A model generated the notes under the pieces. The model saw only the letters and a program-made list of their open reading frames with translations, searched no databases and was not told the origin of the DNA. The position numbers and the translations under genes were made by a program. Source: a virus. Taken from it: a stretch of DNA of 64,000 bases. Within the stretch, counting starts at the first letter, position 1. Each line of letters opens with the position of its first letter. Positions 2,805 to 59,420 of this stretch are shown piece after piece. The stretch covers positions 1 to 64,000 of IMG/VR virus record IMGVR_UViG_3300042565_001021; one strand, written 5' to 3'.

Positions 2805-3530
2805 ATGCCACTAATACTTATACCTACAACTAATGATACTTGTTTTTATTGCGGAAAGCAAGCCTTTTTTGTGTCTGTGAACACCAAAACTAAACGATGT
2901 ACCGAAAAGGTAAATCAATGTCCGGGAGTAATTTCTAAGATGAAACAATCTCGAACCTCTAACGGGTTTGATATAAAAGCTCATATGAAAAATATGAGCA
3001 TCCGAGGAAACGAAAAGTTAAAAGAACTACATACCGACGAAGATTGGGTTAAAAATAAAGGTAATAAAATATCTGCCAAGGTAAAGGAAAGGGGCGGTCA
3101 TTCTGGAATCAACAATCCAATGTATAACAAAAAACATAAAAATTCAACAATACAAAAGTTGGCATTAGCTGCTAATAACAGAAATCCGCAATGCTATATT
3201 CAAGCCACAAATACTAAAATTCTCAATGGTAATGCTGTCTCTAAGGAATTAAAGTCTGATTGGGAATTATATGAAGAACAAGTTGATAATATCACTAGAA
3301 TTAGTTGGATAAAACATAAAAATTTAATAAATCCTTACAAGCTCCCTAGGGGCAAGCAATATGAGCTTGATCATAAATTTAGTAAATATGAAGGATTTAT
3401 AAATAAAGTTCCTCCAGAGATAATAGGGCATTATGCTAATCTTGAAGTAGTCCCAAAGCAATTAAATAGATCAAAGAGTAGCAACTCTTCTATCAGTTTA
3501 ACTGAGCTTTATGAAAGAATAAACTCGTAA
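2805..3530 (+). CDS. HNH/NUMOD-type homing endonuclease
   Basis: N-terminal Cys cluster, NNPMYNKKH NUMOD-like motif, C-terminal LDH...ANL...N HNH motif; AT-rich, antisense to neighbours, ATAAATA at 2776. Confidence 0.7.
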   Translation: MPLILIPTTNDTCFYCGKQAFFVSVNTKTKRCTEKVNQCPGVISKMKQSRTSNGFDIKAHMKNMSIRGNEKLKELHTDEDWVKNKGNKISAKVKERGGHSGINNPMYNKKHKNSTIQKLALAANNRNPQCYIQATNTKILNGNAVSKELKSDWELYEEQVDNITRISWIKHKNLINPYKLPRGKQYELDHKFSKYEGFINKVPPEIIGHYANLEVVPKQLNRSKSSNSSISLTELYERINS

Positions 3531-4674: not shown

Positions 4675-6261
4675 TTACTCCTCAAACAGTGATGGGTTAA
4701 GTATTGGTTTCGTTGGTTCTGCTTTTACTTTGACTACCTTCTCTATGCCTAACATACCTTCAAACTCAAACGTTTCGTGGAAGAACGTGTCTGGATTGAT
4801 AAGGTCGTCTCCTTTGTTACCACGTGTTCCAATGATGCGAGCAAAGTATTTCTTGTAGTGCTCGATTAATGCTAATGCTTTACCTTTGTCGCTCGTTGCG
4901 AAGATGGCATCAATGACTTCGGCGAAGTAATGTAACTCGTATTGCCTAAATCTCTTGCCTTCCATGTAAGACGCATTCATCATCTCTGGGCGTTCGCCGT
5001 TACTGTATCGACGATTAGCTTCCTGCACCGCTTCGATATGACGATGAACGTTGTGTCCCATCAGGATAGCATAGCTGAAACTATCCCAACTGGTGCGTCC
5101 TTCTTTCCCTATCTTATTTAGGTCGCCGGGTCCATAGATACAAATATCTTTGATCGTGCAGCGTTCGCTGACTGGACTTTCTTCGAAAACAGGGAAGATG
5201 CCATCTTGTAATACTGCGTCACGGAAGCGTCGCGTGTCCGTTGAATACTTTTTGTCATCGACGCTTGGTGCCATTCTGTATGTCCATTTGTCATTGTGCG
5301 TGTATTCGTTTGCGACATAGACTTGACCGTTAGCAGTAGCTAAGAATGGACTAGCGCAGTCAAAGCTCACTGTAAAGTTTTCGTTGTGATACTTGCGTAC
5401 CGCATTTTGGATGTCAGTGAGCAACACCGCCCATTCTAGCTTACTGGTTCCTAGGAAGTGCATCCAATCGTGTTTGCCTTTCTCAAGTAATCCGTCGTGC
5501 CGTAGAGCTACTAGCCTTCGAAGGATTAGCTCAACGTCGCACATATTCTGTCCTCCCATCGACCAACCTTCAAATGGTTGTTCGTATTGCTTAGGATCGC
5601 AGTATTTCTTCATCCTGTCATACCAATCGTCTGCCTGTGCGTGTGTCTCGCCTTGTAGAACATTTAGGAATTTACAGTTCCCGTTACGATTGCGCATAAA
5701 GAATTCGTTGTTGATGTCTGTTGCTGCTACCGCTTCAGCGTAAGTGCTTACACCTGTTGCTGCTGCGCCTGCTGGGCTGCGGGCGACCCAGGCCGGAATA
5801 TCAAGGATCATTCCGTAGTCCATGTATGCGTCCATCCAGCTCAATACTTGCGCACGTTTTAACGATGCCTTAGGGCAGTTGATATTTTTCCAATCGCCTT
5901 CCCACACGCCTTTACCGATCTGGAATCCTCCGGAGTCGCCTACTACGAACGAGTATTTGCGATCACGATTGCGAACCATGTCTTCTTTCGGTGCCACTTT
6001 GTTAACATCGAGCTCGGCGTGTCCTGCCGAATACAAAGCCCACTTGTAAGGGAAGTATGCTTCTTCTTTGTTCAGCCAGTTCAGACCTTCTACTCCTGTT
6101 TCAAAGTCAGCAGGTACGCGAGCAGGATCAACGTAGTTTGGATCGAATCGTTGCTTACCTACGTAAGTCGCATAGAACCCACTAAGGGCCGGCAGGAAGA
6201 CAGCCCATCGGCTGCGCCCGTCTGCTCCTACCTGCTTAGATGTTAAGTCATCTCTTAGCAT
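4675..6261 (-). CDS. tRNA-guanine transglycosylase-fold protein (TGT/DpdA-like)
   Basis: DSGGFQ, MILD, VLQG, HFLG, SFDCAS and GHN motifs in TGT order. Confidence 0.8.
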
Positions 6262-6949
6262 TTTTCTTCTCTTCCCAAATTCGTTTCCTTGCCTCTGACA
6301 TTTTTTTCTTTGTCTCTTCAGACATTATTCTTCCTTTAAGTTTAGCACTAATTTTTGCTTTTTGCTCTTCAGTATTCGCTTTACCTTTATGTGACTCACT
6401 TAGTTTAGCACGATGTTCGTCAGTAAATATACGGCCTTTGAGTGATTCAGCATATCGTTTCACTGCTTCGTTGTTCTCTTTAGTTTTACCGGTATTCCAC
6501 GGAACATTACCTTTACCAGCTTCACTTAGCTTTTTTTTATGTTCTTCGGTTTTCGGCTTTCCCTTAGCAGCAGCAGACACTTTTTCTCCATGATTCTTTT
6601 TGATTCCCTTATTTGCTTTACTAATCTTATTTCTACCTTTTTCAGTTAGGAAAGACCCGATTTCTTTATCCTTGTTCCACGGAATAGCACCGCTACATCC
6701 ATCACCTCCGTCTGTTTGGTTACGAAGAATGCCTGTACCTAAATCTTTTCTTCCCCACCAACGAATCAGTCTGCGTTCAAGAGCAAGAGCTCCTATTTCA
6801 GTTAAGTTCGATTCTAGAATTACTATTCGGCGCCGGTCTTTAGGAACAACAACAGAGTGATTGTTTGTGTAAGCACGATTTCCTTGTCCTTTGCCGATGT
6901 AGTAAGGCGTTAGCTCAGAGGTCCGTAAGTAAGCATAAATGTAAAACAT
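6248..6949 (-). CDS. GIY-YIG homing endonuclease with NUMOD3 repeats
   Basis: YIYAY...YYIGKG, E..LI, N.TDGGDG and repeated TEEHKKKLS motifs; ATAAATA at 6969-6975. Confidence 0.85.
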
Positions 6950-11167: not shown

Positions 11168-11238
11168 TATAAATAATAGTGCGGTTCGCTGGTTTCGTCG
11201 ACCCTAACCGCTCTATCGCTAACTGGAGCAACAGCATG
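11168..11238 (+). promoter_or_regulatory. late promoter plus conserved structured leader of homing endonuclease (copy C)
   Basis: TATAAATA followed by GCGGTT/AACCGC, GGT/ACC and GCT/AGC stems; same layout at 46303 and 47385. Confidence 0.7.
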
Positions 11239-11907
11239 AGTATTTATAGTCATATCGCGCCACCCACTGGATTTTATGTATACGCATATATTCGGATTAA
11301 AGATTCTAAAACAGCAAAAGCAGGCACACCTTACTACATTGGTAAAGGTAAGCAATCAAGGGCAATCGCAAAACATTCTTTTACAGTTCCGGAATGCTCG
11401 AGAATAATTATCTTAGAAGAAAACCTAACCGAAATCGGTGCTTTAGCAATTGAGAGGCGCCTTATTAGATTATGGGGCCGTAAAGATTTAGGAACCGGTA
11501 TTTTGTTGAATATGACTGACGGCGGCGACGGTGCCGAGGGGCAACTGTGTTCAGATTCGAAGAGAGCTGCTCTTTCGAAAAAGTTAACCGGGTTATCAAA
11601 AACTACCGACGCATATAAGAAAATACTATCTGACGAAATCAAGAATGGTAAGCGACCCACATTTACTACTGCCGGATATAAATTCACGGATGAACAATGT
11701 TCTAATATATCAAAAGGAAGAAAAGGGCAACCTGCGAACAACAAAGGGGTATCGCCGACAAAAGTAACCTGCTTACACTGTAAGAAAGAAGTAGATGTCC
11801 GCAACTATTCGCGATGGCATTTTAATAACTGTAAGAAGGGTGTCCGATTCGAACAAGCAGGCAGCGAATCTACTTATTCAGGTTCGGATCGACCTACGCC
11901 ACCGTAG
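11236..11907 (+). CDS. GIY-YIG homing endonuclease
   Basis: FYVYAY..YYIGKG and NMTDGGDG motifs, C-terminal CLHC...WH..NC; start moved to the ATG 7 nt after GGAG. Confidence 0.85.
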
Positions 11908-29880: not shown

Positions 29881-29952
29881 GCTGCTCGGCGGGAATCGAA
29901 CCCGCTGCCTTGAGTTTTAGAAGCTCTTGCTCGACCAATCAGCTTCGAGCGC
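29881..29952 (-). tRNA. degenerate tRNA-like gene, anticodon CUA (amber)
   Basis: T arm GCGGG-TTCGATT-CCCGC, D arm with GG, CTA at canonical 34-36; anticodon and acceptor stems imperfect, no CCA. Confidence 0.6.
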
Positions 29953-46047: not shown

Positions 46048-46287
46048 TTACTTACGGTTCTGACGCATTAGGTTTGTGAGAAGATCTAGCCTGTACTCGG
46101 TCGTTCTTAGCTTGTTGCGCAGGCTCGTGATTTCAGCCTGCTGCTGCTGGAGCGTTATCTGCTGCTGCTCCTGCTGTTCCTTCGTCAAGCGTAGGTCCTT
46201 CACTTGGCCCAAGAGGGTCGGTGGTGGCGGAAGATTCGGATCCCGAATTCTTTTTGTTTTCTCAGCATACATTTTTTTGTAGTTCAT
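46048..46287 (-). CDS. small coiled-coil protein
   Basis: DPN.PPPP.L motif then Gln-rich coil; ATAAATA only 5 nt upstream of the ATG. Confidence 0.6.
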   Translation of the reverse strand: MNYKKMYAEKTKRIRDPNLPPPPTLLGQVKDLRLTKEQQEQQQITLQQQQAEITSLRNKLRTTEYRLDLLTNLMRQNRK

Positions 46288-46302
46288 ATTTGTATTTATC
46301 GG

Positions 46303-46370
46303 ATAAATAAGTGTAGTCCACGGAGCGACAACTCCCGACTACTCTAACATTAAAGGGCAATGTCAGCATG
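46303..46370 (+). promoter_or_regulatory. late promoter plus conserved structured leader of homing endonuclease (copy A)
   Basis: ATAAATA; GTAGTC/GACTAC, GGAG/CTCC and ACATT/AATGT stems. Confidence 0.75.
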
Positions 46371-47027
46371 TATATTTATTACGTTTACGCGTACCTCCGA
46401 AGTAAAGACTCAGCAACCGCTAAGGCCGGAACACCTTATTACATTGGTAAAGGCAAAGATGCCCGAATTGATAAACTACACGGGAAAGTTCCGGTACCAA
46501 AAGACAAAAAGAATCGAGTTGTTCTCGAAAGACACTTATCTGAAATTGGCGCCTTTGCCATTGAGCGTCGACTAGTAAGATGGTTTGGTCGTAAGGACTT
46601 AGGAACAGGAATACTATTAAATCAAACAGATGGCGGAGAAGGTTCTGCAGGTAGAATAATGCCAGAATCTGAACGGAAAAATAGATCAGCTCGCAATAAA
46701 GGAAAACCCGGAAGAATCTGGACTGAGGCTGAAAGACTAAACAAATCAACTCAGATGAAAGGTAGATTGCGAACAGCCGAGCAAAGGAAAGTAACATCTG
46801 AGTCATTGAAAGGTAAAGCAAAGCCGCCACGATCCGCCGAGCATAGCGCGAATCTTTCGAGGTCATTGGCAGGTAGGATTAGGAAACCGCTAACTCAAGA
46901 ACATATCGCAAATATCTCAGCCGGAAAAATAGGCAAAACTAAAGGGAAACCGTGGAGCCAAGCAAGAAGAGATGCTCACATTAAACGGTTGGCGCTTCGG
47001 GCTCAGTTGGTGTCGTCTCGGGCGTAG
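46368..47027 (+). CDS. GIY-YIG homing endonuclease
   Basis: YYVYAY..YYIGKG and NQTDGGEG motifs; N-domain very similar to 11236..11907. Confidence 0.85.
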
Positions 47028-47370
47028 GATTTTCTTGAACTGGTTCATCTTTTTCCTTTGTCTCTACGCTTAGACCAAACATCTGAAACCGTTGATTCAA
47101 CTCATCCTTGTTGTTGCTGTAGAAGTAGTTAAACAGTTCCTCAAAGGTTTTGTCGTTCTGGAAACTGTTTCGTTCAACTCGCCCCTGACTAATATTTAGC
47201 ACAATTCGAGCCGAAAGGAAGTCTTTGTTCTTCAGCCCGTAAGTGACAAGAAGTTCTTCATCCCACTTAATGTTGCCGGGATTCTTCATGTATCCTGGTT
47301 GAGCAGTGGCATGCTTCTTGCGTGGGTGAGCTGAGTATTTTGCTACGAGGTAAACGTCTTTAGTTTTCAT
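46981..47370 (-). CDS. hypothetical protein
   Basis: 129 aa with AAGGA RBS; flanked by two endonuclease genes. Confidence 0.65.
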
Positions 47371-47384
47371 CTTGTTCCTTTGAG

Positions 47385-47455
47385 ATAAATAATTGTGTAG
47401 TTCGCGGACCCTCCAATCCCAACTACTCTAACATAAAAGGACTATGTCAGCAATG
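47385..47455 (+). promoter_or_regulatory. late promoter plus conserved structured leader of homing endonuclease (copy B)
   Basis: ATAAATA; GTAGTT/AACTAC, GGA/TCC and ACATA/TATGT stems. Confidence 0.75.
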
Positions 47456-48228
47456 TATTTAACAAACAAATATACTAAGTGGTATAATAACATCATATTA
47501 ACCGCCAAAGCAAGAAGCTTGCTCAAAATTGGTTATTCTGAGAAACATCATATAATACCTAAATCGCTGGGTGGAAACAACAGTAAAGATAACATTGTTG
47601 CTTTAACCGCAAGAGAACACTATGTTTGCCATTTACTTTTACCTAAGATGACCACCGGTAAGGATAGAAATAAAATGGCCTACGCTCTCTCCACCGTATG
47701 CTAAGTGGAAATAGCGATAGGTATCTTCCTAAATCAAAAATATACGAACTTGTTCGTAAATCTATTAAGTCAATGCTTCTCGGTCGTGTTTTCACTAAAG
47801 ACACTCTACAGAAAATGAGTCTGGCAAAGAAAGGAAAACCTAAACCAGATGACATAGCAGCTCGGCTCCGTGTTGCTCGAAAAGGAATGACTAATAGTCA
47901 AGCACATAGAGACAAGTGTTCGTATGCGCTGAGCGGTAGAACCTTCTCAGATACAGCTAAAAAGAATATGAGCTTAAACCACGCAGATGTGGCAGGAAGT
48001 GGCAACCCAAGAGCAAGAGTATGGTTAGTAACAGACCCCAATGGAAAAGAAACTGTATTAAACGGTAACATGGGACAATTTTGCCAAGAAAATAACTTAC
48101 CTGTTTCAGTAATGAGATCAATTGGCCGCGGAAATCGGCCCCCTAAGAGTGGAAGATGCGTTGGTTGGGGTGTATCTCTTATTTCCGACGAATCCGACAT
48201 AATTCTATTAAGGTCGCGGACAGGTTAA
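47453..48228 (+). pseudogene. HNH homing endonuclease with a frameshift near 47685-47691
   Basis: EKHHIIPKSLGG.N...N...LTAREH...H HNH motif; removing one CT repeat unit gives AYALHRMLSG and joins the NUMOD ORF. Confidence 0.8.
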
Positions 48229-49111
48229 TCTCTGGGTCAGCGCAAAGCGAATGATTTACTAACCCTTGCCTGATAATAATGATTGCGTCATCTTGTTCTT
48301 CTTCACTGTCTCCCCATAAAGAGAGATTATTATAAGTCCAGGCAAAGATCTCATCAACGTCCTCTGGGTTAGCACTTCCGCAAATAAGAGCCCTTGCGTC
48401 TTTAATCTTGCCTTTCTTAAACAGATCAACTGCGTCAATGCGCCAGTCTAATATAGACTTGTCAGCAGCAGACGGCATTAACAGCTTTCCTGTAGTTGAA
48501 TGCTGTTGAACCGAGTTCAAGCATTTGCGCAGGTCTGGGTAAGTGCCTTTAACGTAAGAGTCTAAGGTGTCAAGGTCGAACTCCACACCTTCAGTTACTA
48601 GAACAGTTGCTACGCGGGCAGTGAATTCTGTATGATCAGTTTGCGCAAAGTGAAAACCTTGACAACGGCTGTGAAGCGGAGGTGTTATCTTGTTAGGGTG
48701 GTTAGTTGTCAAGATAAATCTAACGCACTGGCTGTATTCTTCCATGGTGGCTTTCATTGCGTCTTGGCCTTGAGGAGATATACGATCTGCTTCGTCTAAC
48801 AGGACTACCTTCATGTCCCCGAACGGCATGGTCTGGCAAAAAGGGTGTACTTTCTCACGGATAAATCCGATACCGTTCTCGCGTGACGCATTGACGTATA
48901 GAACATCGTAGTCATCAATCTCTAATTGATGAACTAACAACTTCGCAAGCGTTGTCTTTCCAATACCTGCGCTACCACTAAACAGCAGGTTTGGTATTGT
49001 CTTTGTCTTAATCCAGGCCTCTACCTGATGCCTTTGAGTTTCGTCTTTGAAGACGTAGGAAGAGACTTCTTTCGGACGGTATTTTTCTGTCCAAAGTTCA
49101 TTAATCGCCAT
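48179..49111 (-). CDS. clamp loader AAA+ subunit (gp44/RFC-like)
   Basis: LWTEKYRP, GSAGIGKTT, DEAD and SRC motifs. Confidence 0.93.
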   Translation of the reverse strand: MAINELWTEKYRPKEVSSYVFKDETQRHQVEAWIKTKTIPNLLFSGSAGIGKTTLAKLLVHQLEIDDYDVLYVNASRENGIGFIREKVHPFCQTMPFGDMKVVLLDEADRISPQGQDAMKATMEEYSQCVRFILTTNHPNKITPPLHSRCQGFHFAQTDHTEFTARVATVLVTEGVEFDLDTLDSYVKGTYPDLRKCLNSVQQHSTTGKLLMPSAADKSILDWRIDAVDLFKKGKIKDARALICGSANPEDVDEIFAWTYNNLSLWGDSEEEQDDAIIIIRQGLVNHSLCADPEINLSATLIELCRIRRK

Positions 49112-59389: not shown

Positions 59390-59420
59390 AGTACTACTAT
59401 TTATACAAGATTGAATTATA

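Follow-up and report, generated by a model that had tools for sequence, protein, structure and literature searches.

A portable cassette with a predicted antisense RNA heads homing endonuclease genes in an uncultured T4-like phage

A cassette shared by unrelated nuclease genes

We have analysed a stretch of 64,000 nucleotides (the window) corresponding to the first 64 kb of the IMG/VR record IMGVR_UViG_3300042565_001021 (hereafter G000; 155,045 bp, linear, 44.5% G+C, CheckV completeness 44%), which is a distant T4-like phage, uncultured. A portable cassette of ca. 80 bp heads homing endonuclease genes in this genome, and the strand of the cassette that is under selection to fold is the one opposite to the nuclease gene. 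With slightly better than even confidence, we favour the explanation that the cassette gives rise to a cis-antisense RNA of ca. 67 nt that damps translation of the nuclease, an analogue of the RNA-OUT of IS10. A first-pass annotation, made by a model from the letters alone, had described a covarying leader in front of three nuclease genes (copies A, B and C); the observation is real, and larger than was described there.

A covariance model (R1) identified 10 copies of the cassette in the 155-kb record, with scores far beyond chance (53-79 bits, E 5e-15 to 6e-9); six of them had been found with one regular expression, and all ten came from the model, which was built later. The window contains copies A (46303-46379), B (47385-47462; 78.1 bits, E 7e-15) and C (11169-11247; 65.7 bits, E 6e-12), the sequences quoted in the first-pass annotation being located at 46303-46370, 47385-47455 and 11169-11238, respectively. 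The rest of the record carries copies G (65509-65595), H (94663-94747), D (105326-105403), I (113249-113334), J (136257-136355), E (146398-146478) and F (150408-150487). The nuclease gene is on the + strand in nine cases and on the - strand in one, the RNA being predicted on the - strand for all copies except J, where it would be on the + strand. The helices, the CRC bulge, the CTCTA linker, the CAGCA that precedes the ATG and the TATTTA within the first codons can all be found in A, B and C, as listed earlier. Over the ten copies the short motifs are only nearly invariant, with CCCTA or CCTTA replacing CTCTA in H and I, and CAACA in I.

The cassette is not restricted to this genome. A 20-base pattern of invariant positions matched at least 117 IMG/VR contigs, a second pattern requiring neither of the promoter-like motifs discussed below matched at least 119, and among the retrieved loci there were 114 R1 matches, of which 107 were distinct. 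An open reading frame (ORF) of at least 40 amino acids follows 164 of the 179 core matches, among the matches listed, and 130 complete and distinct downstream ORFs from the same set were surveyed with Pfam. NUMOD3 was found in 44 of them, HNH in 15, HNH_3 in 12, HNH_5 in 10, GIY-YIG and SegE_GIY-YIG in 6 each and the I-TevI DNA-binding domain in 2, together with one REase_MTES_1575 and one TnsA-like nuclease. The matches do lie upstream of nucleases, as the first-pass annotation had supposed, and the cassette is a nuclease-associated module. In G000 the cargo comprises four GIY-YIG-like subfamilies and two MobE-like HNH genes. A search of prokaryote genomes (596 Gb) gave 7 matches, every one on contigs of metagenome-assembled genomes (L180-L186) binned as Haliscomenobacter, Verrucomicrobia, Bacteroides, Dechloromonas, Rhizobiaceae and others; these are probably mis-binned phage contigs and give no clue to the host.

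The strand that folds

The fold was first described on the strand of the nuclease gene. Strand and covariation were counted in a model-based alignment of the R1 matches. The A.C and C.A mismatches seen on the nuclease-sense strand are G.U wobbles on the complementary one, so that the selected strand is the opposite one. Over the 107 distinct copies, the pair types on that strand were 1690 Watson-Crick, 214 G.U, 3 A.C and 12 other, and 99.2% of the cells are paired there vs. 88.2% on the gene strand. The same asymmetry is found without any alignment, using fixed anchor offsets: over 113 distinct copies, the gene strand of the outer helix contains 26 A.C or C.A and 0 G.U. Folding energies point the same way: for 102 of 112 copies, RNAfold gives the core a more stable structure on the opposite strand, the mean difference being 4.45 kcal/mol (Wilcoxon p 5e-18). 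From 72 opposite-strand sequences, RNAalifold returned two hairpins with compensatory changes in 11 of 18 pairs, and double changes are present in 13 of the 18 pairs in the 107-copy alignment. The covariation score was 0.557 vs. 0.176 in shuffles, none of 500 reaching the observed value, and pairing falls to 33-47% when the partners are slid. Covariation is thus far above the level of the shuffles, and together with the folding energies it places selection on the strand opposite to the nuclease gene. Of the earlier description, the covarying portable module stands, while the structured leader of the nuclease mRNA is not supported.

Layout of the predicted RNA

On the opposite strand, the elements follow in the order (N)TAAATA, a spacer of 4-6 nt, a G, hairpin 1, a single A, hairpin 2, AC and finally a tail rich in U. 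This tail, with UAUUUA(U) at its end, is complementary to the outer promoter-like motif. The predicted RNA has a median length of 67 nt (65-76 nt between the 5th and 95th percentiles), and the same two-hairpin RNA is predicted for all ten copies of G000, with lengths of 65-87 nt. The conserved CAGCA and CTCTA(A) pair with each other on this strand as C-G, U-A and a near-invariant G.U (alignment columns 20 and 69, in 106 of 107 distinct copies), extending the last hairpin of the first description to the 8-9 bp of hairpin 1. Its loop is the complement of the ribosome-binding (Shine-Dalgarno) sequence of the nuclease gene. Hairpin 2 has 10 pairs, 8 of them with compensatory changes, and 100% of its cells are paired on the - strand, according to RNAalifold and the pair counts; the middle base of what had been described as the CRC bulge pairs with the lone C across, as G-C or G.U. 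After the stem of hairpin 2 there are 5-8 U within 11 nt. The predicted RNA overlaps the Shine-Dalgarno sequence in the copies examined, plus the AUG in the standard arrangement, and in the 13 copies in which the ATG lies upstream of CAGC the AUG is inside the fold. We also considered a hammerhead-like reading of the CUGAUG sequence, and rejected it as these bases are paired and variable and have no Rfam match.

Copy A illustrates this arrangement. The outer motif ATAAATA (46303-46309, +) faces the nuclease gene, and its complement is the tail UAUUUAU of the predicted antisense RNA. Hairpin 2 (46313-46342, -) corresponds to the first two helices described earlier, GTAGTC/GACTAC around GGAG/CTCC, and hairpin 1 (46344-46366, -), formed by CUGACAUU / AAUGUUAG, carries the loop complementary to the Shine-Dalgarno sequence. 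The inner motif (46373-46379, ATAAATA on the - strand) is located within codons 2-4 of the nuclease, 5 nt upstream of the GCUG at which the RNA would start. In copy B the corresponding parts are the outer ATAAATA at 47385-47391 and, on the - strand, hairpin 2 at 47397-47426, hairpin 1 at 47428-47450 and the inner motif at 47456-47462, which is degenerate (TTAAATA); the fold of this copy is intact. Copy C has its outer ATAAATA at 11169-11175 and a perfect inner motif, TATAAATA, ending at 11241 on the - strand.

Two facing promoter-like motifs

The ends of the cassette are formed by two facing (N)TAAATA motifs. The T4 late-promoter consensus is TATAAATA (PMC3014915), and ATAAATA matches it. In G000, 28 of the 39 occurrences of ATAAATA on the - strand precede a - strand gene by no more than 120 nt, mostly by 5-36 nt, and among the genes behind them there are two tail-fibre, one tail-spike-like, one head-decoration-like and one virion protein. 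ATAAATA is plausibly the late promoter of this phage. In every copy, 3-6 nt separate the outer motif from the first paired base downstream of it, and 156 of 158 copies keep its TAAATA core at no more than 14 nt from the fold, also when they were retrieved with the pattern not requiring it. The inner motif, seen on the gene strand as TATTTA, follows CAGC by 4-6 nt in 96 of 99 copies, even though the search pattern did not constrain it; its columns in the model alignment (2-7) read TAAATA at 94-99%.

Given its position in the first codons, the inner motif might be taken for a consequence of a conserved protein start. However, it occurs in each of the three reading frames (80, 29 and 17 copies). 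Among the 78 genes whose product begins with M-x-I-Y, codon 2 encodes eleven different residues and yet always ends in T (78 of 78; background 33%), while the Ile codon is ATT in 72 (background 43%). Besides, the ATG has shifted upstream in 13 copies, including G, H, I and J, so that CAGCA is translated (M-S-S or M-T-S), and in these the motif and its spacing are unchanged. The inner motif is therefore not a by-product of coding. An M-T-I-Y start is also found in HNH_3-type proteins. In the first-pass annotation TATTTA had been read as a possible antisense late promoter, and this remark proves to be the central one. The other possibility raised there, pairing with ATAAATA, was examined as a long-range helix between ATAAATA and TATTTAT in a read-through RNA. 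It found no support in the flanks, which have no complementarity beyond the commonest A/T; such a helix could still form, as both heptamers are invariant. No sigma-70-like sites were called at the flanks of the fold; three weak ones overlap cassette B or the ORF of nuclease B, the expectation from shuffles being 2.4.

Similar motifs are found elsewhere in the genome. The outer motif of copy A is part of a perfect palindrome, TATTTATCCGATAAATA (46293-46309), which makes two back-to-back late-promoter-like motifs; the one on the - strand stops 5 nt before the ATG of the ORF at 46048-46287, which would have a nearly leaderless mRNA or a mis-called start. Other - strand ATAAATA motifs are found at 0-8 nt from a start codon (e.g., at 59404, 29807 and 146353 of G000). 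In the retrieved loci, a - strand TAAATA is present just outside the cassette in 25 of 87 with a divergent neighbour vs. 2 of 57 with a co-directional one. Two other nuclease genes of the window, at 2805-3530 (+) and 6248-6949 (-), had been described as lacking the element, and R1 indeed finds no cassette at either; they have only a plain ATAAATA at 19-22 nt before the ATG. One of these genes bears NUMOD3; the second is GIY-YIG-like and paralogous to A and C.

Orientation, insertion boundary and portability

Nine of the ten copies of G000, including the three of the window, are antisense to their neighbours. This arrangement, which the first-pass annotation had pointed out for A, B and C, is only a preference in the metagenomic set, where 67 cassettes are opposite to both neighbours, 26 have the same direction as both and 27 are mixed. 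The opposite-strand fold is favoured in 25 of 26 loci with both neighbours in the same direction vs. 62 of 66 with both in the opposite one, and the inner motif is kept in 84% vs. 80% of the copies depending on the direction of the upstream neighbour. The fold is independent of read-through transcripts of host genes, and its persistence together with the motif in both orientations argues for a self-contained transcription unit. A role of the inner promoter solely for the downstream host gene was rejected, as the motif is equally kept where no such gene exists. G000 itself has a strong strand bias, with 187 of 227 crude gene calls on the - strand, and cassette-headed nucleases make up 9 of its 40 + strand genes.

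Nuclease A (46368-47027, +) is a GIY-YIG-like homing endonuclease of 219 amino acids (PHROG 15526 and 314, “homing endonuclease”) with YxYAY...YYIGKG at its N-terminus, as seen in the translation. Its 3' end overlaps by 47 nt (46981-47027) that of a convergent ORF of 129 amino acids (46981-47370). Nuclease C (11236-11907, +; 223 amino acids), also GIY-YIG-like, is a paralogue of A with 42% identity. Nuclease B (47453-48228, +) is MobE-like HNH (Pfam HNH and NUMOD3, PHROG 655) and is split by a frameshift near 47700 into 47453-47704 (83 amino acids) and 47698-48228 (176 amino acids, in another frame). It is 59% identical to its paralogue F (G000 150477-151175), which is intact at 232 amino acids and 35% identical to the T-even MobE; B is probably a decaying endonuclease gene, and homology with F places its true start at the ATG at 47453, not at 47444. 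The 3' end of nuclease B overlaps by 50 nt (48179-48228) that of the convergent gene at 48179-49111 (-), a gp44-type clamp loader (PHROG 168, E 2e-75) with its best cultured relatives, at 53% identity, among PA5oct-like jumbo phages.

This last gene allows the edge of the inserted DNA to be located. In a relative (L177), a single base separates the stop codon of gp44 from the start of a homologue of the 129-amino-acid ORF. This ORF has no match in Pfam or PHROG, and we read it as gp62-like from its position after gp44 and from the L177 homologue. In G000 the two genes are 808 nt apart, with the antisense HNH gene and cassette B in between, and the outer ATAAATA of the cassette ends 14 nt short of the ATG of the 129-amino-acid ORF. 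Comparison of this boundary with the empty site, along the lines that the first-pass annotation had suggested, indicates that the cassette is the extreme 5' end of the inserted DNA. As for its portability, the most similar leaders (E-F 80%, A-D 79% and A-B 77%) precede proteins without detectable similarity, and the true paralogues (A-H, A-C and B-F) have leaders that are less similar. The cassette is thus portable, its similarities being incongruent with the nuclease families. Copy E adjoins an ORF of 195 amino acids (G000 145759-146346, -) that matches a DNA polymerase family (PHROG 11778, E 7e-56), and this polymerase gene may be split around the endonuclease insertion.

A possible mechanism and its alternatives

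In the explanation that we favour, the nuclease mRNA would be driven by the outer motif and start at the base of the fold, while the RNA of ca. 67 nt that starts with GCUG would be driven by the inner motif, on the opposite strand. This antisense RNA would be fully complementary to the mRNA leader, its ribosome-binding site and its start codon, and transcription would probably end at the U-rich tail. Pairing, perhaps begun by loop-loop contact at the ribosome site, would block translation, trigger cleavage of the duplex, or both, lowering nuclease translation or stability, and a potentially toxic selfish nuclease would be held at a low level. More tentatively, and at somewhat below even confidence, the cassette could be a self-contained and swappable “taming module”, in which convergent late promoters would use a single stretch of 80 bp to produce both the mRNA and an antisense RNA against it. 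It would have been grafted onto at least four unrelated nuclease families, imposing the M-x-I-Y start on them, and the ten antisense RNAs of the genome, which are partly similar, might cross-regulate one another's nucleases as a network.

Several points weigh against the antisense explanation. The activity of both motifs as promoters is inferred from the T4 late-promoter consensus, and no gp55 homologue was found in G000, although in a record that is 44% complete this has little weight. If both promoters are late, it is not evident by what timing the nuclease would escape from its antisense RNA. Hairpin 2 was not called as a terminator by a simple consensus scan; there is a bulge in its stem, and the U-tail, which is interrupted, does not start until 2 nt past the stem. 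The tail and the outer promoter are the same bases and cannot be separated. In addition, the raw counts overstate the number of independent events, many copies sharing descent.

The non-canonical terminator would be less of a difficulty if the fold acted within longer transcripts, as a structured 5' leader, a site for processing or stability, or an insulator or partial terminator for the host genes that run antisense to most cassettes, with the inner promoter restoring expression of the downstream one. The 67 of about 120 cassettes that are antisense to both neighbours fit this idea, as do the short distance (14-64 nt) from the end of the cassette to the next host start codon in G000 and the promoters for downstream host genes embedded in T4 endonuclease genes (PMC2988022). 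However, the fold and the inner motif are equally conserved beside co-directional neighbours, where there is no host gene to drive or read-through to act upon, and the GCUG start is fixed at 4-6 nt from the motif, so that we consider this alternative unlikely. That the nuclease mRNA has a structured 5' leader with which it controls its own translation, by occlusion of the ribosome-binding site, as a protein-binding switch or by autoregulation, appears most improbable. The gene strand does still form three shorter helices (mean about -12 kcal/mol), with the ribosome site in or on the last hairpin, and T-even endonuclease genes use sense-strand hairpins (PMC3014915, PMC2988022). Yet the gene strand would have to tolerate 214 A.C mismatches, including those of an invariant A.C position, vs. 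3 G.U. CAGCA and CTCTA would have no role on it, CAGCA being kept even inside the ORF, and conservation of TATTTA in three reading frames would be left aside.

A role at the DNA level has also to be considered, either as a single-stranded DNA hairpin of the - strand (in which G.T would be tolerated) or as ca. 80 bp of shared homology for recombination, homing or cassette swapping. The incongruence between leaders and nuclease families (E-F 80% and A-B 77%, with no protein similarity) and the location at the very edge of the inserted DNA would agree with this, and PeSL cassettes have been proposed to mediate shuffling (PMC2839356, PMC4122927). But neither the compensatory changes nor their wobble bias towards one strand would follow from homology alone, none of the known homing steps requires a hairpin, and promoter-like motifs at fixed spacing together with a loop complementary to the Shine-Dalgarno sequence fit an RNA better. 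We regard it as very improbable.

Comparison with known systems

Among the selfish elements of large phages, homing endonucleases are the main ones, and it is only partly understood how their hosts tolerate dozens of them. The control known from T-even phages consists of sense-strand hairpins and autorepression. If the antisense explanation is true, the cassette would represent a new RNA family common to GIY-YIG, HNH and other nucleases, and a second general solution to nuclease control, convergent with the antisense control of transposons, in which regulatory DNA moves as a module independently of the gene that it heads. Being short and carrying a T4-type late-promoter-like motif, it may be directly testable in T4-infected E. 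coli.

The motif is uncatalogued in Rfam. Rfam 15 gave only one tRNA at the gathering threshold in the window, and nothing relevant at E<=10 over 46200-47600; the tRNA gene is at 29884-29950 (-; RF00005, 35 bits). Neither the region nor a consensus-like cassette had a BLAST match among 50,697 cultured-phage records, and R1 had none in T4, Aeh1, S-PM2, PA5oct, Phosso, Atu_ph07 or RsoM2USA, which indicates that the cassette is neither one of the known T-even hairpins nor CfrI.

The endonuclease genes I-TevI, I-TevII, I-TevIII, segB and mobE of T-even phages and Aeh1 have sense hairpins that sequester the ribosome-binding site, and the late promoter is inside the 5' arm, so that late transcripts escape the hairpin (PMC2988022, PMC3014915). 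These genes resemble the ones described here in being headed by a late promoter (here a predicted one) together with an RNA structure, but in the cassette no part of the promoter lies within the fold, and it is the opposite strand whose fold is selected. The PeSL cassettes of T4-type phages, an early promoter and a terminator stem-loop flanking ORFans (PMC2839356, PMC4122927), are also short, conserved and repeated combinations of promoter and stem-loop at gene boundaries, apparently shuffled between loci. However, they are not tied to nucleases and have neither a convergent promoter pair nor an antisense logic. Closer in kind is CfrI of the T4-like cyanophage S-PM2, an antisense RNA of ca. 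225 nt, detected experimentally, that lies opposite a homing endonuclease gene and bridges this gene and psbA (Millard et al., 2010, as summarised in PMC2984593); it is the only phage precedent reported, and is analogous to the cassette, not homologous.

The nearest parallel comes from transposons. In IS10/Tn10 (RNA-OUT/RNA-IN) and IS200 (art200), an opposing promoter inside the 5' end of the enzyme gene produces a short, stably folded antisense RNA over the ribosome site and the start codon (PMC5006887, PMC4513863). The cassette has no sequence or model similarity to these systems and differs from them in its T4-type late-promoter-like motifs, its two hairpins, its presence in a lytic phage, its association with homing endonucleases rather than a transposase, and in that its RNA is a predicted one. 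The feature typical of the IS10 type, a stem-loop overlapping the ribosome site and the start codon, is found here in the covarying two-hairpin fold, with the anti-Shine-Dalgarno sequence in the loop of hairpin 1. In both cases a mobile element encodes a DNA-cutting enzyme with an opposing promoter in its gene and an antisense RNA covering the ribosome site, both of them predicted in the cassette, an arrangement that would keep the enzyme scarce.

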